From an uncultured Chitinophaga sp. (GTDB lineage: Bacteria; Bacteroidota; Bacteroidia; Chitinophagales; Chitinophagaceae), in NCBI GenBank assembly GCA_964641575.1, contig CAZXMP010000006.1, positions 1,627-65,626 on the forward strand: a stretch of DNA of 64,000 nucleotides, written 5' to 3'. Made by a program: the position numbers and the translations under genes. Every line of letters starts with the position of its first letter. The first letter of the stretch is position 1. This document shows, piece after piece, positions 5,647-44,845 of the stretch. Under the pieces are notes generated by a model that saw only the letters and a program-made list of their open reading frames with translations, had not been told where the DNA came from and searched no databases.

Positions 5647-6726
5647 ATGTCCATTCATTTTCACCAGCTCACCGTAAAAGAAGTAAGAAAGGAAACAGAG
5701 GATTGTGTTTCCGTACTGTTTGAAATTCCCGAAAACTTAAAGGAAAGTTTTCTTTTTCAGCAAGGACAAAGTCTAACCATGCGAAAGACTTTGAACAATG
5801 AAGATGTTCGCCGTACTTATTCTATCTGCAGTTCCCCATTAGATAATGAATGGAGGGTTGCTATCAAAAAAGTGGATGGCGGTTTATTCTCCTCCTTTGC
5901 CAATAATGAATTAAAGAAAGGCGATGTATTGGAAGTAATGCAGCCGGTTGGCAAATTTTATGTTGCTTTAGATTCTGCCCACAAAAAAAATTACCTGGGC
6001 TTTGCTGCCGGCAGCGGCATTACTCCGCTACTATCTATTATTAAAACTACGTTGCGAACAGAGCCGCAAAGCAGTTTTACGTTAGTGTATGGAAATAAAA
6101 ATCGTAGCTCGATTATTTTTTTCGAAGAGTTAGAAGCACTAAAGAATAAGTATTTGCAACGATTTAATTTCATTAATATACTTAGCAGAGAACGAACTGA
6201 TGCAACAATTAATTTTGGAAGAATAAATGCAGAGAAGCTAAAAGAGTTAGAGAAACTGATTGATTATACTTCTTTTGACGAATCGTTTATATGCGGGCCA
6301 GAGGAAATGATTTTTGCAGTGAAAGATTTCTTATCAGCAAAAGGGATCGATAAAAAGAAAATACATTTTGAATTGTTCACTACTCCCGGGCAGAAAAAGC
6401 CAGGACTTGTTAGTCGGGAGTCGGGAGTTGAAACCGGACCGAAGAGCAAGATTTCAATAAAGTTGGATGGAAGGAGTTTTGACTTTGATTTATCCTTAAC
6501 AAGTGATATAACGATTCTCGATGCGGCATTGAAACAGGGAGCTGATTTGCCTTTTGCCTGCAAAGGAGGTGTATGCTGCACTTGCAAAGCTAAACTTCTG
6601 GAAGGCAAGGTTAGTATGGATGTACATTGGGGATTAGAAGATGAAGAAGTAGAACAAGGCTATATTCTTACTTGTCAGGCTCATCCCACAACAGAAAAAG
6701 TGGTCGTTGATTTTGATGTGAAATAA
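5647..6726 (+). CDS. paaE: Phenylacetyl-CoA epoxidase reductase subunit (FAD/NAD plus 2Fe-2S)
   Basis: RTYSICS, AAGSGITP, FICGP and ferredoxin CKGGVCCTC...C motifs; paa context. Confidence 0.9.
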   Translation: MSIHFHQLTVKEVRKETEDCVSVLFEIPENLKESFLFQQGQSLTMRKTLNNEDVRRTYSICSSPLDNEWRVAIKKVDGGLFSSFANNELKKGDVLEVMQPVGKFYVALDSAHKKNYLGFAAGSGITPLLSIIKTTLRTEPQSSFTLVYGNKNRSSIIFFEELEALKNKYLQRFNFINILSRERTDATINFGRINAEKLKELEKLIDYTSFDESFICGPEEMIFAVKDFLSAKGIDKKKIHFELFTTPGQKKPGLVSRESGVETGPKSKISIKLDGRSFDFDLSLTSDITILDAALKQGADLPFACKGGVCCTCKAKLLEGKVSMDVHWGLEDEEVEQGYILTCQAHPTTEKVVVDFDVK

Positions 6727-9614: not shown

Positions 9615-10151
9615 ATGGAAAAAGACAGTTCCATACAATCGGGTTCTAAAGTCCCTCCTTCGGAGGGATTTAGGGAGGCAATTTGGTCAATACTCACAAC
9701 AGTAACCGACCCGGAAGTTCCTGTGCTTACTATTACTGATTTAGGAATAGTAAGAGATGTAAAAATAAATGATGGTGGCATTGAAGTTATTATCACCCCA
9801 ACTTACACAGGTTGTCCAGCTATGGACATGATTACCATGAATATTAGATTGGCCTTAATTGAAAATGGTTTTCAAAATATAAAAGTTACGTCTGTTCTTT
9901 CTCCGGTATGGACAACTGATTGGATGAGTGAAGATGGAAAAAGAAAATTGAAAGAATACGGTATTGCCCCACCCAATCCACAGCAACAGGTTTGTAATAA
10001 TGATTTGTTTGCTGCAGCAGAGGCGGTTCAATGTCCGCATTGCAATTCCCATCATACTCACCGCATCAGTGAGTTTGGCAGTACGGCCTGCAAATCCTTA
10101 TATCAGTGTGATGATTGCAAAGAGCCATTTGATTATTTTAAATGCCACTGA
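9615..10151 (+). CDS. paaD: Phenylacetyl-CoA epoxidase subunit D (Fe-S cluster protein)
   Basis: DPEVPVLTITDLGIVR, TPTYTGCPA, CPHC...STACKSLYQCDDCKEPFDYFKCH. Confidence 0.95.
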   Translation: MEKDSSIQSGSKVPPSEGFREAIWSILTTVTDPEVPVLTITDLGIVRDVKINDGGIEVIITPTYTGCPAMDMITMNIRLALIENGFQNIKVTSVLSPVWTTDWMSEDGKRKLKEYGIAPPNPQQQVCNNDLFAAAEAVQCPHCNSHHTHRISEFGSTACKSLYQCDDCKEPFDYFKCH

Positions 10152-10216: not shown

Positions 10217-10990
10217 ATGTCTTCTATCCTTTTCGAAATAAAAAACTCTATCGGTTTTATTACTTTAAACCGGCCTGATAAACTCAATTCTTTCAACCGT
10301 GAGATGGCATTACTGATGCAAGCTGCGTTAGAAGAATGTATTAAACCTAAAGTTCGCTGTGTTTATATAACCGGTGCAAGTAAAGCATTTAGTGCCGGGC
10401 AAGATTTAGCAGAAGTTGTAGATCCCAACGGGCCGGGGATGCAAAGGATATTGAGTGAGCATTATAATCCCATTGTAATAAAAATAAGAGAATTAAAAAA
10501 GCCAGTTGTAGCAGCTGTTAATGGTGTAGCCGCAGGTGCCGGTGCTAATATTGCTTTGTGTTGCGATATATGCGTGGCAAAAGAATCGGCCAGTTTTATC
10601 CAGGCTTTTTCTAAAATTGGTTTAATACCCGATAGCGGGGGTACTTTTTTTCTTCCTAAATTAATTGGCTGGCAAAAAGCATCTGCATCAATGATGCTAG
10701 GCGATAAAATAGATGCTGCTACTGCAGAAAGCTGGGGTATGATCTATAAATATTTTGCCGATAATGTTTTTGAAGTAGAAGCATTAAAGATTGCTGAAAC
10801 ATTGGCCGCTATGCCCACTACCGGCTTGGCACTAACAAAACAAGCATTGCAATGGGGTTTTACTCACACAATGTACGAGCAACTTCAAAATGAAGATAAG
10901 CTACAACAAAGAGCAGCACAAACTGCCGATTATAAAGAAGGAGTGCAGGCATTCCTGGAAAAGAGACAACCCAATTTCAAAGGCGAATAG
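10217..10990 (+). CDS. paaG: 2-(1,2-epoxy-1,2-dihydrophenyl)acetyl-CoA isomerase (crotonase family)
   Basis: LNRPDKLNSFN, FSAGQDL, VNGVAAGAGANIAL, GLIPDSGGT. Start ATG 10217. Confidence 0.88.
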   Translation: MSSILFEIKNSIGFITLNRPDKLNSFNREMALLMQAALEECIKPKVRCVYITGASKAFSAGQDLAEVVDPNGPGMQRILSEHYNPIVIKIRELKKPVVAAVNGVAAGAGANIALCCDICVAKESASFIQAFSKIGLIPDSGGTFFLPKLIGWQKASASMMLGDKIDAATAESWGMIYKYFADNVFEVEALKIAETLAAMPTTGLALTKQALQWGFTHTMYEQLQNEDKLQQRAAQTADYKEGVQAFLEKRQPNFKGE

Positions 10991-11019
10991 CCGGTTGATT
11001 TTTTGATTAATCAATTTAT

Positions 11020-11460
11020 ATGAAAAACGAAAAAGACAAACTTGCCAACGAAGTCGTTTCACACATGATGAAAAACGATTTATTCAGTCAATGGCTGGGA
11101 ATAGAAGTACTGGAGATAAAAGAGGGATACAGTAAAATAAAAATGACGGTCCGAAAAGAAATGATCAATGGTTTTGGCATTGTACATGGCGGCATAGCAT
11201 TCTCCCTAGCCGATAGTGCTTTTGCATTTGCCTGCAACAACAGAAATGTTTTATCTGTTGCATTAGACACTTCTATCAATTTTGTTAAGCCGGTTCATGT
11301 AGATGATATATTAATTGCAGAAGCTAAAGAATTACATAATGGAAAGTCAACCGGATTGTACCATATTAATATTACCAACCAGAAAGAGCATTTGATTGCA
11401 CAGTTTAAAGGCTTGTGCTATCGCACAGATAAAGAGTTAATAAGAAAAGAAGGTATATAA
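11020..11460 (+). CDS. paaI: Hotdog-fold phenylacetyl-CoA thioesterase
   Basis: NGFGIVHGGIAFSLADSAFAFACN. Confidence 0.9.
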   Translation: MKNEKDKLANEVVSHMMKNDLFSQWLGIEVLEIKEGYSKIKMTVRKEMINGFGIVHGGIAFSLADSAFAFACNNRNVLSVALDTSINFVKPVHVDDILIAEAKELHNGKSTGLYHINITNQKEHLIAQFKGLCYRTDKELIRKEGI

Positions 11461-12561: not shown

Positions 12562-12628
12562 TACGATCTGTCAATCAGCTTATTGTAGCGAGACAACTAC
12601 AAATTTTTTAAAAAAAATCTACAAAAGC

Positions 12629-12659
12629 TTGCAGAAGTAAAAACACGGAGTTACTTTCG
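12629..12659 (+). promoter_or_regulatory. Predicted sigma-70-type promoter of the first T9SS cargo gene
   Basis: TTG(CA) -33 element and TACTTTCG -7 element; a similar layout occurs at about 15395-15425. Confidence 0.5.
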
Positions 12660-12716
12660 TTCTCCCAATTACAAATTCCACTCCTCCAAAAAGACCATAG
12701 AATTAAGTTCCAAACT

Positions 12717-12814
12717 TATTCCTCGTTGAACCACTGAGTCTTACATCCTGTTGATACACCTTACTAAAAATCTATTCCTCTAGTTGAAACTCTGAGTCTC
12801 AAATCCTATTGATA
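12717..12814 (+). repeat. Two imperfect ~40-nt direct repeats in the predicted 5' leader
   Basis: 12717-12756 versus 12773-12814, 35 of 40 aligned positions identical by eye. Confidence 0.8.
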
Positions 12815-12882
12815 TGCCGTTCCAATTCTTCTAAAGCCCAACGGTTTAGGATTTACTATTTATAACATAAAAATCTCAGAGC

Positions 12883-15033
12883 ATGAAAAAATTTACTTAT
12901 TCTTTACTGATCGCTTTTGCAGCGATATTATTTTCGGGAACAGCCTTTGGCCAGATTACAACCGTTGGGACTGCAACAACTGCTTCCTCAACAACTGGTT
13001 CAATTACAATTAGCAAACCAACGGGCATACAAGTTGGTGATTTAATGATTGCATCCATTGTGGAAAGTGAAGCTTCTGGCGGAACTGACCTTGGTAGTTC
13101 AAATGGCTTAACTGGTTGGACTTTAATGAGCGAAGGAACATTAGCTGGAACCAATCCAGAATTTTATGGCTATGCGTTTTATAAAATTGCTGTTTTAGCA
13201 GATGTAACGACCAGTGATTATACTTTTGATCTGGATGGTTCTAATAATGCAGCGTCTGGAAGTATTATTGCTTTTAGGGGAGTTAATAACACTACTCCTT
13301 TTGACATAACACCAAGCGCCTCGCTTGCAGGCGTAAATACAGATAATAGTTTATCTCCTTCTGCAATTTCGCCGATATCGGCCAATACTGCTGTAGTAAT
13401 GCTTGGTTTTGTTGGTTTAAATACAGGATCCGCTAATATTTTTAGCGGTTGGAATACCACAAGTCCAGGTGCCTTAACTGAACTTGTTGACTTTGGTGCA
13501 ACCGCTACAAGAGGAAGAGGTGTAGGAGCTGCTTGGGCTACAAAAGCAAGTACCGGGACTACAGGTCCAACAGGTACAGCTACACTAGCTGGAAACTATG
13601 CTAATGGGTCTTTATTGATTGCTTTAAGACCCTTTATAGATCCTGTTCCAAATCCAAACTTATGGTCAGTATCAGGCACAGGTGATCTTAGAAAATATAC
13701 CATGGATCCAATAGCAGGTACTTTGTTAGCTGGTCCTGCAACGGTTGTTACTCCGTTAACTTCTACTGCCGCTGTAGCCAAAAATCAAATTACACCTAGT
13801 GATGTTAATGGTTGTATATACTATCTTGACAGAGACGATGATGACACAAAAAATGGTGTAGTTACTATTTATTCTTTACGTCCTGATGGTACCGGCCATG
13901 GTAGCAGAGGCACTATCGATATGAACGGTGCCGCAAATACTAGCGACTTTAGTTTTGTACGCCTTGGTTTTGATGCGTTGGGCAGAGGATGGATTTTAGC
14001 TGGTACTGGTGGCACTATCTACATTGCCTCATTCCAGGGTAATGGTGTAAATGCAATCAGCGGTGTAAATACTTTCGGAAATGCTACTTTAAATGTTGCA
14101 GCTCCCGGTCAGGCTACAGATTTCCAAAATGGTGATTTAGCTATTACTGCTAATGGTACCATGTACGCTGTTGCTAACGTAACAGATGGAGAAACTTATG
14201 TGTATGTATTGAACTCTCTTAACACCCCAACTACTCTTTCCCGCAAGTGGACAGTACAACAAGGTGGTAACACTTTCTCCGGTAGTGTAAATGGTTTAGC
14301 GTGGACACAATCAGGTTCATTGCATTTTTCTACCAGCACAGGTATATATTTTATCGACCAGTTTACTGCAAACACTGCTTCGGGTACAGTTCAGGCAACT
14401 TTAGTTGCTAACACAGGTGGCTTGTCATTAACTGACCTTGGCTCCGATAGATTCCCAACTCAAACAACTTTACCTGTTGACCTGATCAGCTTTGCCGGTG
14501 CATACAGCAACCAGAAAACAAACCTTAACTGGGTAACTGAAAACTTACAGGACTTTGATCGTTTTGAAGTTGAGCGCAGCACAGACGGAAATAATTATAT
14601 TACTGTAGGTACAAAAGCTCCGGTACAAACTGCAGCAAGAACTACTTACTTACATACAGATGATTTATCTGCTGTAAATGGTACTGTATTCTACTATCGT
14701 CTTAAAATGATAGACCTGAACGGACAGTTCAAATACAGCAATGTAATATTGGTACGTAAAGAAAGTAACGTAAAGGGTATCCGCATCAACCCGAACCCGG
14801 TTGTAACGGGTGGTGTTGCTACTTTACGTTTTGAAGCAAGTGCTAAAGGCGTTGTAGAATTCCGAATAGTTGATATGGCGGGTCGCATAGTGTTGAGGCA
14901 GCAGAATAATGTTGCAGAAGGTATCAACAGCGTTCCGGTTAACAGCCTTGATCGTTTGCAACCTGGTACATACATCTTGCAAATGAATGATGGTACGGCA
15001 ATACAATCAACCAAGTTCATCGTAGCACAATAA
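12883..15033 (+). CDS. T9SS type-A secreted protein (N-terminal beta-rich domain, propeller-like middle, sorting domain)
   Basis: Signal peptide; TLPVDLISF...FYYRLKMID...INPNPV...LQPGTYILQM C-terminus. Confidence 0.85.
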   Translation: MKKFTYSLLIAFAAILFSGTAFGQITTVGTATTASSTTGSITISKPTGIQVGDLMIASIVESEASGGTDLGSSNGLTGWTLMSEGTLAGTNPEFYGYAFYKIAVLADVTTSDYTFDLDGSNNAASGSIIAFRGVNNTTPFDITPSASLAGVNTDNSLSPSAISPISANTAVVMLGFVGLNTGSANIFSGWNTTSPGALTELVDFGATATRGRGVGAAWATKASTGTTGPTGTATLAGNYANGSLLIALRPFIDPVPNPNLWSVSGTGDLRKYTMDPIAGTLLAGPATVVTPLTSTAAVAKNQITPSDVNGCIYYLDRDDDDTKNGVVTIYSLRPDGTGHGSRGTIDMNGAANTSDFSFVRLGFDALGRGWILAGTGGTIYIASFQGNGVNAISGVNTFGNATLNVAAPGQATDFQNGDLAITANGTMYAVANVTDGETYVYVLNSLNTPTTLSRKWTVQQGGNTFSGSVNGLAWTQSGSLHFSTSTGIYFIDQFTANTASGTVQATLVANTGGLSLTDLGSDRFPTQTTLPVDLISFAGAYSNQKTNLNWVTENLQDFDRFEVERSTDGNNYITVGTKAPVQTAARTTYLHTDDLSAVNGTVFYYRLKMIDLNGQFKYSNVILVRKESNVKGIRINPNPVVTGGVATLRFEASAKGVVEFRIVDMAGRIVLRQQNNVAEGINSVPVNSLDRLQPGTYILQMNDGTAIQSTKFIVAQ

Positions 15034-15044
15034 TATTTCAATAT

Positions 15045-15076
15045 AAAAGGGATGGGTTTCTCCATCCCTTTTTTTC
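15045..15076 (+). terminator. Intrinsic terminator
   Basis: AAAAGGGATGG-gtttct-CCATCCCTTTT plus T run. Confidence 0.85.
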
Positions 15077-15166
15077 TTTTCATTTTTATTTATAGCACTG
15101 CCCTTAGGGGATAACCTTATCGAAGATTCAGTTATATATGGATAAATGAAAGACTGATAGATGATA

Positions 15167-15231
15167 CATGCTCAGGGTTTTTATACCTTGAACCCCTCTG
15201 GCCCATGCGGAGGGGTTTTTTTATTTACCCG
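15167..15231 (+). ncRNA. Candidate small RNA, copy 1 (seed plus intrinsic terminator); 5' end unknown
   Basis: 65-nt block nearly identical to 18001-18066. Ends in an AACCCCTC...GAGGGGTT hairpin plus T7. Lies between the upstream terminator and the downstream promoter. Confidence 0.5.
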
Positions 15232-15638
15232 TATAGCCATACCGGAGGCGTAGTTGCCTTAGCGAATTCGGATTTTCCGAAGCCTTAACAAAGTAGGTTT
15301 ACCCCATGAAACTTTAGCCAGAAGTTTTTTGTTCACCCTTTTATAGCGATTCAAAAAAAAGATTAAACTTTTTTTAAAAAATCGTAAATCTACCTTGCAG
15401 GTATTACGTTGGGTTTTTACTTTTACATCACTTCAGAATTCGTACCTATACAAGAGCCACATTTAATCAGCGTCCTTAGTACGCATCCACCCTTTCTACT
15501 GTAAAACCCCTTAAGAGTTTTTATTTTTTAATTACCCATATCGGGTCCAATCCTGCATAAAGCCAACGGTTTATTATCCATCCGCTAAAACCACCACGGT
15601 TACGGAGTTATTTATTTTTTAATTATAAACCATTGAGC

Positions 15639-17861
15639 ATGAAAAAAATTATTTATTTAAAAGGATTTCTTTCCTTACTATTTGCTATAATAGCAAATCT
15701 GTTGTTTTCGCAAACAATTACTTTTACTTCCCCTGTATCGGGTTCAACAACAAATGTTACTAACGGTAGCAATCTTTCTATAACAGCTGAAAGAACTACT
15801 GCGAGTTGGAACGGCGGAAACAGCAACTGGACTTTTAATTTTAATGTTGTTTCAGGACCAGTAGGTGGGGTAAGCCTTTCTCCTGATCCTATTTCAGGAA
15901 ATAATATTGAAGAAGCAACAACAACGGCTACTTTCTCAATTATTGGTACTTATGTTATAAGCTGTACGGTGAATGAAAATGGCGGTGGCGAGACCCATAC
16001 TACTAGCACAGGGAACAATATTACCATAAATGTGGTAGCACCTGTACCACTTACTCCTATCGGTTGTAACGGCCAGTTTTATGTTAGCTATGGGCCAACT
16101 TCTGGTGCAAACGGTAACACACTTCTGAATAAACTTACATTTGCTGGTAGCAATTTATCAGCATCTTCTTTCCCGGTTAATCCAGGAAGCATGGGCTTTA
16201 ATTCAATGGGCTTAAATCCAATTGACGGATATATTTACGCTGTACGCTATCCAGCTGGTGGAGGCAAATCCCGCTTAATAAGAATTGGCAATGGATTACC
16301 AAATCAGGTTGATTTGGGTGAAATAGCAGCACTCAACACAGGTGAGATTTCTTACTCAGGTTGTTTTGATGAAAACGGGGATTACTATTTTACTACAAAC
16401 TCAGGCACTGGTTCTGGAAGATTGATGAGAATAACAAATGCCAATCTTGCAGCAAGAACCGCTACACAGATTGCAGCCAGCGGTTTCACTAGTATATATG
16501 ATATCGCAATCAATCCTGTTAATGGACAGATGTATGCCACTAATTCAAGTACCGGTGCAAATTTCCTTGCTACTGTAAACAAAGCAACTGGCGCAATTAC
16601 GACCATAGCTGGTGGTAATGCAGGAGGTAATTTCTTTGCAGGCCTGTTCTTTGATGAAGTGGGCGAATTGTATGGTTACAGGGCGAACGGCTCCTTCTTC
16701 CAAATCAATAAAACCACAGCGGCTCTTTCTGCAGCAGGAAGTGGTGCCGCTTATTCCGGAGCCGATGGCTGTAGCTGTAGCTTTGGCCGTGTGTTTCATG
16801 ACCTGGATTTTACGCTGAATCCGAGCAACCAAATTTGTCCCAGCCAAATGAACCCTACATTCCCGTTCCCGCTAACTGTTTCTGTAACGAATGAATCAAG
16901 CAGTCAACAAACTGGTCTTACATATACCCTTGATATTTCCGACCCTGCTAAAAGACTTGTGTTTACAGAAAGCAGTGCTACCATAAAAGCAAATTTTATT
17001 ACAGCCGGACTTGCTACTGTTGCCTCAACAGTAACACTTTCATCGGCCACCCCTGGCGATCCAATCAATAAATTGGTTATTACAGGTTTTCAAACTGGTG
17101 GAGCTGATGCAACTTTAAGCGCCGTATTACAGGTAGCTGTAGCAACATTGGGAGGCACCTATCTTCCTGTTCCTATTCAATCTGAAATTACCGGGCTAGA
17201 TCCTGTGTTTGGTGGTAACGATTTATCGAACGACCCGACTTCCATTCCTCCGGATGATGCTACGGTAATTACTTTCTGCCCGAACATTACACTTCCGGTA
17301 ACCTTGTTAAGTTTTGGTGGCAACTTAAATAACAATACTGCACAACTTGATTGGAGCGCAGAAAATCAAATCAATTTCTCGTTCTATTCAATTGAGCGTA
17401 GCATAAACGGTGTTGACTTTAAAAATGTAGGTACACAAGCCGGTCTGGGTACCAATACAAGCAGAGAGCAATACCAATTTACTGAAGACCTTTCTGCGGA
17501 ACATTCTAATATATTCCTCTATCGCCTTAAAATGGTTGATGTAGATGGTACTTTCAAATACAGCAATGTAATTGTACTCAAGAGGGATGAAGGTGCTACA
17601 CCGGGTATCAGAATTAACCCGAACCCATTAGTAAGAGGTGGCCAGGTTTCAGTTGTATTTAATTCTCCAAAAAAGAATACGGTTGACTTTAAAGTAATTG
17701 ATATGTCTGGTCGCATAGTAGCAACGCAGCGCAGTAATGTAGCTGAAGGAGCTAACAGTGTTGCTATCACCAGTCTTGATAAACTACAACCGGGCACTTA
17801 CGTATTGCAAATGAACGATGGTATTGCAATACAAACAGCTAAGTTCGTAGTAGCTAAATAA
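15639..17861 (+). CDS. T9SS type-A secreted protein (Ig-like plus propeller-like domains), paralogous C-terminus to 12883-15033
   Basis: Start ATG 15639; signal peptide; TLPVTLLSF...FLYRLKMVD...INPNPL...LQPGTYVLQM. Confidence 0.85.
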   Translation: MKKIIYLKGFLSLLFAIIANLLFSQTITFTSPVSGSTTNVTNGSNLSITAERTTASWNGGNSNWTFNFNVVSGPVGGVSLSPDPISGNNIEEATTTATFSIIGTYVISCTVNENGGGETHTTSTGNNITINVVAPVPLTPIGCNGQFYVSYGPTSGANGNTLLNKLTFAGSNLSASSFPVNPGSMGFNSMGLNPIDGYIYAVRYPAGGGKSRLIRIGNGLPNQVDLGEIAALNTGEISYSGCFDENGDYYFTTNSGTGSGRLMRITNANLAARTATQIAASGFTSIYDIAINPVNGQMYATNSSTGANFLATVNKATGAITTIAGGNAGGNFFAGLFFDEVGELYGYRANGSFFQINKTTAALSAAGSGAAYSGADGCSCSFGRVFHDLDFTLNPSNQICPSQMNPTFPFPLTVSVTNESSSQQTGLTYTLDISDPAKRLVFTESSATIKANFITAGLATVASTVTLSSATPGDPINKLVITGFQTGGADATLSAVLQVAVATLGGTYLPVPIQSEITGLDPVFGGNDLSNDPTSIPPDDATVITFCPNITLPVTLLSFGGNLNNNTAQLDWSAENQINFSFYSIERSINGVDFKNVGTQAGLGTNTSREQYQFTEDLSAEHSNIFLYRLKMVDVDGTFKYSNVIVLKRDEGATPGIRINPNPLVRGGQVSVVFNSPKKNTVDFKVIDMSGRIVATQRSNVAEGANSVAITSLDKLQPGTYVLQMNDGIAIQTAKFVVAK

Positions 17862-17885
17862 TACTTTTTTAAAATACACTAATAT

Positions 17886-17914
17886 GGGGATGGCCTTGTG
17901 TCATCCCCTCTTTT
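17886..17914 (+). terminator. Intrinsic terminator
   Basis: GGGGATGG-ccttgtg-TCATCCCC followed by TCTTTT. Confidence 0.7.
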
Positions 17915-18000
17915 CCAGCCTCAACATAGTACCCTGTTCTTATAATAAAGTAGGGAGTTGCTAACAGACGAATAATATTATGATTAGTAAATCAGACGAT

Positions 18001-18066
18001 CATGCTCAGGGTTTTTAGACCTTGAACCCCTCTGGCCCATGCGGAGGGGTTTTTTTTATTTACCCG
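18001..18066 (+). ncRNA. Candidate small RNA, copy 2
   Basis: Differs from 15167-15231 by one substitution and one extra T. Confidence 0.5.
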
Positions 18067-18232
18067 CCCAAGCCTTACCGAAGCCAAATTACCCAAAACC
18101 CCTACGAGGGCAACTTATCCTCCGGGCTCCAACGGCTAGTTTCACCCACCAAAACCACCCATAAAAATTTCTTTTTGCAGCCGCCAAATAGTTGTAATTT
18201 AATTGTTGCTTAATAATCTAAAACCTTAGTAT

Positions 18233-19492
18233 ATGAGAAAAAGTTTACCTATTCTATCTCTCCTTTCTGCCACTTTATTAGCTTCTTCTTCTATCAACGC
18301 TCAGCAAACTGATCGTTTTGCTTATGCTGTTACGGATATGCAACAGCAGGGTGGCAACTGGAGTTTTTTACGAAAATTAAATCTGCAAACCGGCGAGTAT
18401 AGCCCTGTATTACTAAATGGTAACGATGCTTCACTGCTGGCCTATAATGCATCCACCAAAAAACAATTAACTGCCCCGGTTACGGATGCCATTTATGGTA
18501 GTGCCGCTAATGCTGCTTTTGGTACTGGTGTTGCCGCCATGGCATATGATAAGAAAAATAACCGTCTTTACTATACCCCCATGCTGGTAGACCAGTTACG
18601 TTACCTGGATCTAAAAACAATGAAGGTGTTTTATGTAACCGATCGTTCTTTTACCGGCAAGCCACAAAAATCTCCCGACCAGGGAAATATTGTCACCCGC
18701 ATGGTAATAGCATCTGATGGTAATGGTTATGCTATGACGAATGACGGAAGACAACTCATTCGTTTTACTACCGGAAAGAAAATGGAAATAACTGACCTTG
18801 GTTCGTTGGTGGATGATCCTGCTAACTCAGCTTCCATTCATAGTTCCTGCAGCAGCTTTGGTGGAGATATGATTGCTGATGATAATGGCAATCTCTTTGT
18901 TTTATCTGCCCGTAACCAGGTGTTCCAGGTAAATATTGAAACTAAAGTAGCAACTCATCTTGGTACTATAAAAGGATTACCTGCTAATTTTACTACCAAT
19001 GGTGCAGCAGTTAATGATGATAACAAAATCATTATTGGCTCTGCTACTCAATCGGCTTCTTACTTTGCGTTTGATTATAAAACATTAGAAGCTGTTCCTT
19101 ATCAAATAGCAGGTACTGTTTGGCAAAGTTCAGATTTAGCGAATAGTAATTTACTAATAACAAGCAGTAAAAAACCAGTTTCAGATCTAGCAATTACAGA
19201 TTTAAAAATGGCGGATGCAATTGTTGCGGATGGTAAAGTAAGCATCTTCCCTAACCCGGTTACCGATAACCAGTTTACTGTTCGTTTCAACAAATTGGAA
19301 GCAGGTAATTATATGTTACAAGTAACCGATGTAACAGGCCGCCAGGTATTACAACAAAGTATTAGCATTAATGGTGATAACCAGGCTCAGCGTATCAACC
19401 TTTCTGCTGCTACTTCAAAAGGAGTTTATTTAGTAAAGATTGCAGATGCACAAAGTAAAATAGTGTTTAACACAAAGATTGTTGTACAATAA
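18233..19492 (+). CDS. T9SS type-A secreted beta-propeller-like protein
   Basis: Signal peptide; repeated blade-like segments (GGDMIADDNGNLFV); IFPNPV...AGNYMLQV...GVYLVKI sorting domain. Confidence 0.85.
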   Translation: MRKSLPILSLLSATLLASSSINAQQTDRFAYAVTDMQQQGGNWSFLRKLNLQTGEYSPVLLNGNDASLLAYNASTKKQLTAPVTDAIYGSAANAAFGTGVAAMAYDKKNNRLYYTPMLVDQLRYLDLKTMKVFYVTDRSFTGKPQKSPDQGNIVTRMVIASDGNGYAMTNDGRQLIRFTTGKKMEITDLGSLVDDPANSASIHSSCSSFGGDMIADDNGNLFVLSARNQVFQVNIETKVATHLGTIKGLPANFTTNGAAVNDDNKIIIGSATQSASYFAFDYKTLEAVPYQIAGTVWQSSDLANSNLLITSSKKPVSDLAITDLKMADAIVADGKVSIFPNPVTDNQFTVRFNKLEAGNYMLQVTDVTGRQVLQQSISINGDNQAQRINLSAATSKGVYLVKIADAQSKIVFNTKIVVQ

Positions 19493-43321: not shown

Positions 43322-44845
43322 TTATTTCAACTTCAACTGCACTACATTTTCTATATGGTGTGTATGCGGAAACATATCAACGGGTTGCACTTTTGTTACG
43401 GCGTATTTTGCATCCAGCAATTGCAGATCTCTTGCCTGGGTAGCCGGGTTGCAACTTACATATACAACGGTTGGTGCGGCGATATCCAAAATTTTCTGCA
43501 CCAGTTTATCATGCATACCGGCTCTTGGCGGGTCGGTGATGATTACATCTGGCCGTCCATGTGTCGCAAAAAATTCATCATTGCAAATATCAATTACATC
43601 GCCGGCAAAAAAAGCCGCCGCCGTTAAATTATTCAACGCTGCGTTTTCTTTGGCATCGTTTATTGCGGCAGCGATCATTTCTACCCCAATAATTTTTTTG
43701 GCTTTATCACTTACAAAAATGCCGATGCTTCCCGTGCCGCAATACAGATCGTACACAATTTCATTACCAGTCAACTCTGCAAAATCTCTTGTTACCTGGT
43801 ACAATCTTTCGCCTTGCTTTGTATTGGTTTGAAAAAAAGATTTCGGTCCGATCTTAAATTGAAAATCTTCTAATTTTTCAATCACATATCCTTTGCCTGA
43901 ATAAGTTACCGGCTCAAGATCAAACAAACTATCATTCCATTTTAAGTTAACCGTATAAAGCAATGTGGTAATGGATGGGAACTTATTGGCGACATATTCC
44001 ATCAGCAATTTTATTTTAGCTGGATCATCTTCACTTACCATGATATTTACCATTAGTTCACCGGTAGTACAAAGTCGCACCTGCATGGTTCTTAAAAAAC
44101 CTACATGATTACGAATATCATAAAAAGGCCAGCCTTGCTGAATGGCAAATTCCTTGACTGCCAATCTTATTTCATTGGTCGGTTCGGCTTGTAAATAACA
44201 GGTTTGAATATCTACCACTTTATCAAAAAAACCTTTGGCATGAAAACCGGCAACAGTCCCGGCCTCCCTGCCCTCCGAAGGAGGGTTCTTAGAGTTTATA
44301 AACTCAATTGTCGTTTCCAAATTGTTAGAGTCTAAAGCCCCTCCTTCGGAGGGGTTTGGGGAGGTCTTGCTTTCTGCATTGCGAATTCTTTCTTCTCTAC
44401 TAGGTGGTTTTTGTTTTGTAAACTCTTTATTCCCAAAAGTGTATTCCAGTTTATTCCGGTAATACCTTGTCTCAGCTCCACCAATAATAGGTTCTATTGC
44501 AGGTAATGCTACTTTGCCTATCCGTGTCAATACATCTGTAACCTGCTTCGTTTTATATTGCAATTGCTTTTCATACGGAAGCATTTGCCATTGGCAGCCG
44601 CCACATACACCAAAATGGGAGCAAAACGGAGTAACTCTATCAGCAGAAAATGAGTGAATCTGTACTGCCCTTCCTTCCGCCCAGTCCTTTTTGCTTTTGG
44701 AAAGCTGTACATCTACCAGATCTCCCGGCACCGCCCCTTCTATAAAAACAACTTTTCCATCTAACCGGGCCAGGCTTTTGCCTTCAGCAGCATAATCTTC
44801 TACCAGCACTTTCTCCAGCAGTATGTTTTTCTTTTTTCTTTTCAC
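43322..44845 (-). CDS. rlmD: 23S rRNA (uracil-5)-methyltransferase with TRAM domain
   Basis: CSHFGVCGGC, SFFQTN, DLYCGTGSIG, DPPRAG, YVSCNP, DMFPHT. GTG start. Confidence 0.92.
   Translation of the reverse strand: MKRKKKNILLEKVLVEDYAAEGKSLARLDGKVVFIEGAVPGDLVDVQLSKSKKDWAEGRAVQIHSFSADRVTPFCSHFGVCGGCQWQMLPYEKQLQYKTKQVTDVLTRIGKVALPAIEPIIGGAETRYYRNKLEYTFGNKEFTKQKPPSREERIRNAESKTSPNPSEGGALDSNNLETTIEFINSKNPPSEGREAGTVAGFHAKGFFDKVVDIQTCYLQAEPTNEIRLAVKEFAIQQGWPFYDIRNHVGFLRTMQVRLCTTGELMVNIMVSEDDPAKIKLLMEYVANKFPSITTLLYTVNLKWNDSLFDLEPVTYSGKGYVIEKLEDFQFKIGPKSFFQTNTKQGERLYQVTRDFAELTGNEIVYDLYCGTGSIGIFVSDKAKKIIGVEMIAAAINDAKENAALNNLTAAAFFAGDVIDICNDEFFATHGRPDVIITDPPRAGMHDKLVQKILDIAAPTVVYVSCNPATQARDLQLLDAKYAVTKVQPVDMFPHTHHIENVVQLKLK
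44262..44364. repeat. Inverted pair of REP-like palindromes inside rlmD (third copy at 9645-9678 in paaD)
   Basis: TCTAAAGCCCCTCCTTCGGAGGGGTTTGGGGAGG matches the paaD copy 31/34; an inverted copy lies at 44262-44293. Confidence 0.85.

Follow-up and report, generated by a model that had tools for sequence, protein, structure and literature searches.

A conserved hairpin-terminator RNA element follows T9SS cargo genes in one Chitinophagaceae genus and is complementary to their translation start regions

The window, which is the whole 64,000-nucleotide stretch of DNA analysed, contains two T9SS cargo genes in tandem, each followed by one copy of a short, nearly identical block (Table 1). The ATG at 15639 is the likely start of cargo gene 2; the list of open reading frames begins this gene at 15633, with a TTG in the same frame. 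The neighbours include paa genes, obg, and genes for a GH18 protein and an S46 peptidase. The syntenic order is a hexapeptide transferase, the variable cargo gene or genes, the element, a conserved T9SS gene of about 418 residues, and obg. The content and order of the cargo genes vary among genomes, and genome G031 has both cargo types in the reverse order relative to the window.

Table 1 Features of the cargo locus, in window coordinates
Feature	Position	Strand	Details
Seed-complementary sites in the long 5′ leader of gene 1	12717..12798	+	Two sites: GAACCACUGAGUC within 12717-12740 (-14.3); GAAACUCUGAGUC within 12775-12798 (-16.0)
Translation start region of gene 1	12867..12885	+	CAUAAAAAUCUCAGAGCAUGA
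T9SS cargo gene 1	12883..15033	+	716 aa; Por_Secre_tail
Intrinsic terminator of gene 1	15045..15072	+	Between the stop codon and element copy 1
Element copy 1	15167..15231	+	Anti-start-region segment 15167-15184 (CAUGCUCAGGGUUUUUAU); hairpin P1 15173-15178 / 15185-15190; P2 terminator hairpin about 15192-15216; U tract 15216-15222
Translation start region of gene 2	15624..15641	+	UAUAAACCAUUGAGCAUG
T9SS cargo gene 2	15639..17861	+	DUF6923 and Por_Secre_tail
Terminator-like hairpin of gene 2	17886..17908	+	Weaker; T run interrupted
Element copy 2	18001..18066	+	Anatomy of copy 1 shifted by +2834; anti-start-region segment 18001-18018; P1 18007-18012 / 18019-18024; P2 about 18026-18050; U tract 18050-18057
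Conserved 419-aa T9SS protein	18233..19492	+	Downstream of the cargo array; 57-69% identity in relatives

The duplicated 65-nt block that the sequence-only reading had reported is real, with an identity of 97–98% between its copies. The repeat finder delimits it to 15167–15222 and 18001–18056 (98% identity, repeat family D4), and on direct reading the copies end at 15231 and 18066 and differ by a single substitution (T/G at 15184/18018) and an additional T. When the two duplicated units are aligned globally, the block has 48 matches in 50 positions, the spacers on either side of it have 22–35 (about 50% identity), and the paralogous C-terminal coding tails have 32–39 (68–78% identity), which agrees with the earlier description of diverged flanks and less conserved coding tails. 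The description of the block as multi-copy holds for two close tandem copies and one diverged copy on another contig, but not for a dispersed family in the same genome. A REP or MITE-like dispersed repeat was rejected, because each of these three copies lies directly after a T9SS cargo gene; a chance repeat and a mobile element were also ruled out as the identity of the block. The terminator scan recovered the terminators previously assigned to both upstream genes, as well as the GC hairpin with a U tract in each copy of the block, at 15190–15218 and 18024–18052. The P2 stem has 9–11 base pairs, including six G-C pairs, and is followed by 7–8 uridines, as in intrinsic (Rho-independent) terminators. 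Copy 1 has a minimum free energy of −25.2 kcal/mol (z −3.9) and a covariance-model score of 86.9 bits, and copy 2 scores 80.5 bits. The earlier remark that the block belongs to no recognized family is upheld by a search of the whole window against Rfam 15, which gave zero matches at the gathering threshold; the best permissive matches (E 0.2–9, 14–25 bits against thresholds of 34–60) were driven by the terminator.

The block is an RNA element conserved across one genus, in which a small hairpin and a terminator follow T9SS cargo genes. The covariance model was applied to 147 genomes of a single uncultured Chitinophagaceae genus, of which we know no cultured member; with a cut-off of 40 bits or more, it identifies 75 copies, spread over 58 of these genomes. 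The element-bearing genomes are species-level, and many of them come from wastewater and soil. They contain one to five copies each, mostly in tandem and 2–3 kb apart. A pattern search returned 72 matches, every one in Chitinophagaceae-type MAGs, and the rest of the order has essentially no copies, with stray 15-mer matches only. In all 66 testable copies, an open reading frame on the same strand that encodes a T9SS C-terminal sorting tail ends 0–141 nucleotides upstream. The element is primarily a 3′-end module, that is, part of a 3′UTR and terminator, because in many relatives it adjoins the stop codon of the cargo gene (0–28 nucleotides). This distance, which applies to most relatives, leaves no room for a promoter and does not support the earlier proposal of a stand-alone small transcript. 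Any small RNA from this module would most likely arise by processing of the 3′ end of the mRNA. The element lies on the same strand as a protein-coding gene and in its 3′UTR; in the window, where an extra terminator intervenes, co-transcription is uncertain. Such a terminator, 70–90 nucleotides before the element, is found for both window copies and 14 others. No Bacteroidota-type TAnnTTTG box was seen by eye in several spacers of this type, and a sigma-70 scan, which does not cover Bacteroidota promoters, detected no promoter near the element.

In the model-based alignment of the copies, 98.7% of cells in the P1 and terminator hairpins are paired, and eight pairs are changed on both sides. 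None of 500 shuffles reaches the observed pairing values, and slid controls are 42–59% paired. Covariation among the copies from the genus is seen in both helices, the P2 stem is kept by compensatory changes, and the frequent G-U pairs fit the sense strand only. The element is 78–90% conserved across species whose cargo proteins are only 30–50% identical, as expected from the purifying selection on a structured RNA that had been suggested for the block. The 5′ seed proposed to precede the intrinsic terminator is also present: it is unpaired, invariant, and conserved in relatives. The conserved segment has the invariant form (C/A)AUGCUCAGGG(U)n AU, the first 6–7 nucleotides of which are single-stranded. 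Conservation begins sharply at the A or C preceding UGCUC, and UGCUCAG is near-invariant (one variant cell), which extends to copies that come from the model search and not from the pattern search. By contrast, the upper part of the terminator stem and its loop vary freely. The 5′ arm and loop of P1 belong to the invariant segment, and the 3′ arm mimics the cargo start region.

Three other explanations were tried and rejected. A micro-ORF (ATG CTC AGG GTT TTT ATA CCT TGA, MLRVFIP*) is shifted out of frame by a T run that varies from three to seven between copies, and its ATG is replaced by GTG, TTG, or CTG in some of them. An attenuator of the downstream gene would use an alternative GGGUU/AACCC pairing that is lost in the large GACCCCUCC group, and a promoter-like block follows the element in relatives. 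The idea that the spacer of window-type copies is a relic of a cargo tail ending in ...KIIKR* found no support, since the tail profile matches it no better than shuffles (best E 1.1).

The invariant 5′ half of the element, (C/A)AUGCUCAGGGUUUUUAU, is antisense to the cargo translation start region, AUAAAACCUnaGAGCAUG. The sequence-only reading gave no regulatory target for the block; the predicted target is the start-codon region of the cargo genes themselves. The start of gene 1 is predicted to form 17 base pairs with the element (−18.5 kcal/mol), from −16 to +2 relative to the A of the AUG, with a z-score of −6.0 against shuffles, and that of gene 2 is predicted to form 16 base pairs (−18.8 kcal/mol, z −6.9). 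Across the family, the predicted duplexes of 12–17 base pairs cover the start codon at about −16 to +2, and the z-scores of start-region pairing against composition-matched shuffles are −4.5 to −7. The median for cargo start regions is −16.0 kcal/mol, and 86% of them reach −14 or lower, compared with 6% of 225 other ORF starts from the same loci. This position-specific complementarity recurs in more than 40 diverged genes. The transition mismatches comprise 34 that are compatible with wobble pairing (U-G or G-U) and two C-A. The arm in the element is invariant, whereas the arm in the start region is free to vary in its middle part.

The start region and the element are both simply conserved: an element pairs with the start region of its own genome no better than the elements of other genomes do (permutation p 0.42), and the lengths of the A run and the U run are not significantly correlated (Spearman 0.15). 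The conservation of the start region could partly reflect the common ancestry of cargo 5′ ends. When the 5534 candidate starts of the window's own genome were ranked by their pairing energy with the seed, those of the two cargo genes came 10th and 13th. When the start of each gene was paired with its own 3′ flank, the cargo genes ranked 51st and 127th of 2213 (top 2–8%), a result that is not informative when taken alone. Start regions of the same type precede two T9SS genes of this genome that have no element (C13:2344 and C113:9929), and that of the 419-residue T9SS gene is only partially complementary to the seed (AAAACCUUAGUAUAUG). The leader sites of gene 1 have related blocks in relatives, some of which contain an exact CCCUGAGCAU. 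The diverged third copy, on contig C40, follows a 316-residue T9SS gene and has relatives in eight other genomes of the genus. Copies of this type keep AUGCUCAGGGG next to the stop codon, together with the matching start region, and differ from the main family in the 3′ arm of P1 and in the terminator. Because they keep only the anti-start segment, this segment is the conserved core of the element.

The reading that we prefer, with a probability of about 0.5 judged from sequence, is that translation is limited by base pairing of the cargo start regions with the 3′UTR element or with a released fragment of it. A duplex would nucleate between the free AUGCUC and the GAGCAU(G) at the start codon of the cargo gene and would then spread into P1, reaching the extent described above. 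Bacteroidota initiate translation on unstructured A-rich leaders and do not rely on Shine-Dalgarno pairing, and because of this the duplex should block ribosome loading; it may also alter the decay of the mRNA. The finished mRNA may fold back onto its own start region in cis. Alternatively, a stable 3′ fragment may act in trans, its targets being the other cargo genes of the tandem array and a few further T9SS genes that share this start region. The sequences show the conservation, the structure, the location behind cargo genes, and the complementarity; we infer that the RNAs do pair, as well as the direction of the effect and its action in cis or in trans. Pairing in cis in the window would need read-through, because the stop codon of each cargo gene is followed by a separate terminator before the element is reached. 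The P1 hairpin sequesters part of the seed, which counts against the pairing reading.

It is unlikely that the element is a stand-alone small RNA with its own promoter in the spacer and purely trans action on cargo mRNAs. Such an RNA would account for the 98% identity of the window pair despite the separate upstream terminators and for the sharp onset of conservation, and the two T9SS genes that have the start region without the element could be its targets. However, most copies leave no space for a non-coding promoter after the stop codon, the promoter box was not seen in several of the spacers, and the spacers are not conserved between the window copies. Alternatively, the block might be a duplicated terminator or insulator that ends cargo transcription and shields the next gene, is kept uniform by gene conversion, and has a complementarity without function. 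P2 and its U tract do form a textbook intrinsic terminator, the window copies are 98% alike while those of other species reach at most 90%, which fits concerted evolution, and gene-specific co-variation with the start region is lacking. Nevertheless, this explanation is improbable: an invariant unpaired 7-mer with an upstream hairpin in 58 species-level genomes is not normal for terminators, the stem top and loop are free to vary while AUGCUCAGGG is fixed, copies of the C40 type exchange the terminator and retain AUGCUCAGGGG, a second terminator is redundant in the window, where the genes already have their own, and the complementarity recurs at the same position in diverged genes.

A DNA-level signal, in which the start region and the 5′ half of the element are inverted repeats at which segments invert or cassettes are exchanged, or operators of a DNA-binding regulator, is very unlikely. 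Imperfect inverted repeats of about 17 base pairs do bound each cargo gene, the cargo content and order differ between genomes, and the motif recurs in the leader. However, none of the 66 copies is inverted, all being on the same strand; the two matches of an inverted-junction scan are both in the normal orientation, and no recombinase is encoded nearby. On the sense strand, the great majority of mismatches between the two arms would allow G-U pairing (34 versus 2), and only the start-region arm is variable in its middle. An integron-type cassette site was rejected, as the arms, read by eye, do not fit the attC-type R''/R' boxes RYYYAAC/GTTRRRY and the neighbours include no recombinase. Guide RNAs of the dCas12f/TnpB type have a large 5′ scaffold and a 14–16-nt guide at the 3′ end, and are encoded beside the effector gene (PMC13472631). 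The present element has its complementary segment at the 5′ end, a remainder of about 45 nucleotides, and no effector among its neighbours, and this candidate was also rejected. It is quite unlikely, although conceivable, that the element is a boundary module of cargo cassettes, with the RNA of the transcribed cassette silencing its siblings and a few unlinked T9SS genes in an RNA-based hierarchy or mutual exclusion.

Little is known about post-transcriptional control in Bacteroidota, and a literature search turned up nothing on T9SS cargo being regulated at the RNA level. According to the preferred reading, in which the element pairs with cargo start regions, an RNA masking the A-rich leader and start codon would show a mode of translational repression, because the phylum is not reliant on Shine-Dalgarno pairing. 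The element brings a testable target with it, namely the gene directly before it. The locus that it marks combines hypervariable cargo with conserved ends and may help in studying the turnover of secreted-protein repertoires. If the element were a cassette boundary, every variable T9SS cargo gene would have the same 5′ start region and a matching 3′ anti-start RNA, and the variable secreted or surface proteins would thereby form a hierarchy or exclude one another; the shared ends could also provide homology for cassette swaps between species.

The small RNAs mapped in the transcriptomes of Bacteroides thetaiotaomicron (PMC7366714, PMC10994844) come from the same phylum and resemble the element in being short, structured, and ended by an intrinsic terminator. 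They have no sequence or Rfam relationship to it, and the element is limited to one Chitinophagaceae genus and tied to T9SS cargo. The 3′UTR-derived small RNAs of Proteobacteria, such as CpxQ, SroC, and DapZ, are released 3′ fragments that share the terminator of the mRNA and act by base pairing (reviewed in PMC5502269 and PMC7821165). The element shares with them a conserved seed just upstream of the parental intrinsic terminator. Unlike the element, the best predicted target of which is the parental gene family, RNAs of this type usually act on other genes and usually depend on Hfq or ProQ. To our knowledge, Bacteroidota have neither Hfq nor ProQ. A 3′UTR motif of Staphylococcus aureus icaR is reported to pair with the ribosome-loading region of its own mRNA and to control translation (PMC3868564), and an interaction of the 5′ and 3′ UTRs of Bacillus subtilis hbs is reported to control ribonuclease action and mRNA stability (PMC5737220). 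As in these systems, the element is a 3′UTR motif with complementarity to the region of its own mRNA on which ribosomes load. By contrast, the element has an A-rich leader and the start codon itself as its predicted partner instead of a Shine-Dalgarno sequence, is fused to the terminator 0–28 nucleotides past the stop codon in most copies, and is present on every gene of a tandem array.

Two near-identical copies of the 65-nucleotide RNA element lie on the forward strand, one behind each of two T9SS cargo genes, gene 1 (12883-15033) and gene 2 (15639-17861, DUF6923 and Por_Secre_tail). The sequence-only reading had placed the two blocks there, and a repeat finder and direct reading agree on both; the copies differ by one substitution and one extra T. 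The genome of 4.2 Mb in 328 contigs contains just these two close copies. In an alignment of the two duplicated units, each consisting of gene, spacer, and element, the block has 48 of 50 matches, compared with 32–39 of 50 for the C-terminal coding tails of the two genes and 22–35 of 50, near noise, for the spacers on either side of the block. Therefore, the sequence-only reading was right that the block is more strongly conserved than the paralogous coding sequence. According to a terminator scan, each copy ends in a strong terminator of its own, and a separate terminator-like hairpin is positioned 90–95 nucleotides upstream of it. The window also contains a 34-nucleotide hairpin-like repeat, TCTAAAGYCCCTCCTTCGGAGGGRTTTRGGGAGG, at 9645-9678 and 44331-44364 (91% identity, 34.7 kb apart). 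A 30-nucleotide stretch at 1872-1901, AGAGGTTTTTTTATTTAAGCCTATTGCCAT, is 83% identical to the 3' tail of the element together with its following flank (15211-15240) and may be a related terminator tail.

Coordinates of the element copies, preceding hairpins, leader sites, and the diverged family member
Feature	Position	Value, source, or context
Element copy 1	15167-15222 by repeat finder, to 15231 read directly	98% identity to copy 2
Element copy 2	18001-18056 by repeat finder, to 18066 read directly	98% identity to copy 1
Terminator-like hairpin before copy 1	15045-15072	terminator scan
Terminator-like hairpin before copy 2	17886-17908	terminator scan
Gene 1 leader seed-complementary site	12717-12740	-14.3
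Gene 1 leader seed-complementary site	12775-12798	-16.0
Third, diverged family member	own-genome contig C40, about 10257-11280; loci L116-L125	after 316-aa T9SS gene

Folding of both window copies produces a 6-base-pair hairpin, P1 (CAGGGU / ACCUUG), with the terminator hairpin P2 immediately behind it. The minimum free energies are -25.2 and -25.7 kcal/mol, at z of about -3.5 to -3.9; no significant fold results for the reverse strand of these copies. In a model-based alignment of 82 copies, 72 of them distinct, pairing is kept in 98.7% of cells, and both sides have changed in eight pairs. The observed pairing and covariation values were reached by 0 of 500 shuffles, and slid controls gave 42–59% pairing. 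A register shift of one base in a single subgroup accounts for some of what looks like covariation in the lower P2 stem; genuine covariation is present in the upper P2 pairs and in the P1 variants AGGGUU/AACUCU, AGGGUU/AAUCCU, and AGAGUU/AACUCU. G-U pairs are common at fixed positions, and therefore the structure is on the sense strand only. The motif UGCUCAG is nearly invariant, with one variant cell, and is kept likewise in model-found copies missed by the exact pattern.

No Rfam family was matched at gathering thresholds, and permissive searches returned terminator-driven noise only, which bears out the first impression that the element belongs to no known Rfam family. With the 65-mer as query, BLAST identified copies with 78–90% identity in about 14 other members of the genus, and an exact-pattern scan of a collection of species-representative genomes found 72 instances, all in MAGs whose label is Chitinophagaceae, Chitinophagales, or unclassified Bacteroidota. 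At a cut-off of 40 bits, a covariance model trained on 12 copies detected 75 copies; of the 147 genomes of this uncultured Chitinophagaceae genus, 58 contain them, with one to five per genome, usually in tandem at 2–3 kb spacing. Outside the genus, scanning 400 genomes from across the order with a 15-mer turned up only six stray matches. The element defines a new RNA family, of a kind already known, confined to one uncultured genus.

The order of the locus is syntenic in the genus: a paa-type cluster ending with a hexapeptide transferase gene, T9SS cargo genes (one to several, highly variable), the element, a conserved T9SS protein of about 418 residues, and obg. In the window, a gene for a 23S rRNA intervening-sequence protein (PF05635, 11494-11886) lies between the paa thioesterase and hexapeptide transferase genes. 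A long same-strand open reading frame with a T9SS sorting-domain tail stops 0–141 nucleotides upstream of the element in 66/66 copies with enough upstream sequence. The spacing falls into three classes: 0–8 nucleotides behind cargo tails of the ...KIIKR-stop type, 12–28 nucleotides behind those of the ...KFSVVR-stop type, and 92–141 nucleotides with an extra terminator between stop codon and element, which includes the window copies and 14 others. Therefore, the element is first and foremost a module at the 3' end of cargo genes. The proposal of a stand-alone transcript holds in that the RNA is structured, is under selection, and includes both seed and terminator; it does not hold as regards a free-standing gene. 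Cargo proteins are 30–50% identical between species, mostly in the last ~195 residues only, whereas the element retains 78–90% nucleotide identity, which indicates purifying selection on it. In genome G031 (L039), the cargo types occur in the opposite order to that at window 12883-17861, with the DUF6923 type first, and the element nevertheless follows each cargo gene; in this the cargo genes resemble cassettes that are shuffled while their ends stay constant.

The main new result is that the predicted target of the element is the start region of the same cargo genes. The start context of both window genes is GAGCAUGAAAAAA, nearly every cargo gene in these loci begins ...AUAAAACCUnaGAGCAUGAAAAAGUUUAC, and the reverse complement of the first 17 nucleotides of the element is AUAAAAACCCUGAGCAU; that of GAGCAUG is CAUGCUC. 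RNAduplex predicts 12–17 base pairs (median 14) spanning about -16 to +2, with energies of -14 to -21.6 kcal/mol (-18.5 and -18.8 for the window genes) and z of -4.5 to -7 against composition-matched shuffles. With the best candidate start taken for every open reading frame, -14 kcal/mol or better is reached at 86% of the 49 cargo starts, compared with 6% of 225 other starts in the same loci; several of the starts in that 6% belong to cargo genes in wrongly oriented loci. The two cargo genes rank 10th and 13th of 5534 in a genome-wide scan of candidate starts against the seed, which also surfaced further T9SS genes that share this start region. When each start in this genome was scored by energy only against its own 3' flank, the cargo genes were only in the top 2–8%. 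Gene-specific co-variation is absent, as a gene's own element pairs no better than permuted ones (p 0.42). The downstream gene of the ~418-residue protein (window 18210-18235 and relatives) has a related start region, AAAAAACCUUGUGUAUGAG, which matches the GGGUUUUU part of the seed, not GAGCAU (duplex median -10.5 kcal/mol, a few -15 to -20).

The ~320-nucleotide region upstream of gene 1 includes two further seed-complementary sites in a tandem 40-nucleotide repeat; the leader of gene 2 has no extra seed-complementary site. Leader blocks akin to those of gene 1 occur in relatives, and exact CCCUGAGCAU is found about 65 nucleotides upstream of the start codon in five loci. Long conserved 5' leaders are common to cargo genes (window 12562-12883 and 15232-15639; loci L049-L113). 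They contain conserved blocks that follow the pattern ..aAATCCTg..GATgaCC..tCCAt.CC.. and, 25–45 nucleotides before the start codon, a hairpin whose sequence covaries. Both window genes have a promoter-like block ~250 nucleotides upstream, AAAAAATC..TA.ATCTAC..CTTGCAG.

The genome-wide seed scan identified a start region of the same type in a gene for a 316-residue T9SS protein on contig C40. One base past its stop codon is AUGCUCAGGGGUUUUAUUUUAAAACACCU, followed by a quite different terminator; this copy, undetected by the covariance model, carries the same AUGCUCAGGGG as the main element. Conserved versions of the variant occur in eight further genomes of the genus, one of which has two tandem copies. 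All C40-type copies combine AUGCUCAGGG(G) beside the stop codon with a matching start region, and in them the P1 3' arm (AAAACC for ACCUUG) and the terminator have been replaced. The independent C40-type copy points to the anti-start segment, the 5' half of the element, as its core. In both subfamilies the P1 3' arm equals a piece of the start region, and P1 therefore resembles a built-in mimic that would keep the anti-start segment occupied until the real target is met. In genome G004 (L044/L066), a partial copy of the 5' half, TATGCTCAGGGTTTACGGATTTTT, follows the ~418-residue T9SS gene at about position 6611; it was not called by the covariance model.

The most economical reading is that of an RNA module with two roles, which would end cargo transcription and carry a sequence directed against the start region. 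A plain terminator maintained by gene conversion accounts for the 98% identity within the genome; however, it leaves unexplained the invariant unpaired 7-mer, the diverged C40-type copies, and the position-specific complementarity. A DNA-level inverted repeat, serving inversion, cassette exchange, or as an operator, would fit the variation of cargo content and order between genomes, but is disfavoured: 66/66 copies are in one orientation, a scan for inverted junctions found no true cases, and a recombinase is not among the neighbours. Moreover, single-base departures from Watson-Crick pairing are skewed to sense-strand wobbles (34, of which 30 U-G and 4 G-U) over C-A (2), which is expected of RNA-RNA pairing and unexpected of a DNA inverted repeat. 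A stand-alone small RNA is possible for the window-type arrangement, but is at odds with the copies that abut stop codons.

The two-role module would pair with cargo mRNAs and limit the initiation of translation. The finished mRNA could fold back on its own start region in cis, or a stable 3' fragment could act in trans on the sibling genes of the array. In the window, the additional terminator between each cargo gene and its element means that cis action there would need read-through; no promoter for independent transcription of the element was seen in a by-eye reading of several window-type spacers or in a sigma-70 scan, which does not cover Bacteroidota promoters. The nearest precedents described are the interaction between the 3'UTR and 5'UTR of icaR and small RNAs derived from 3'UTRs.
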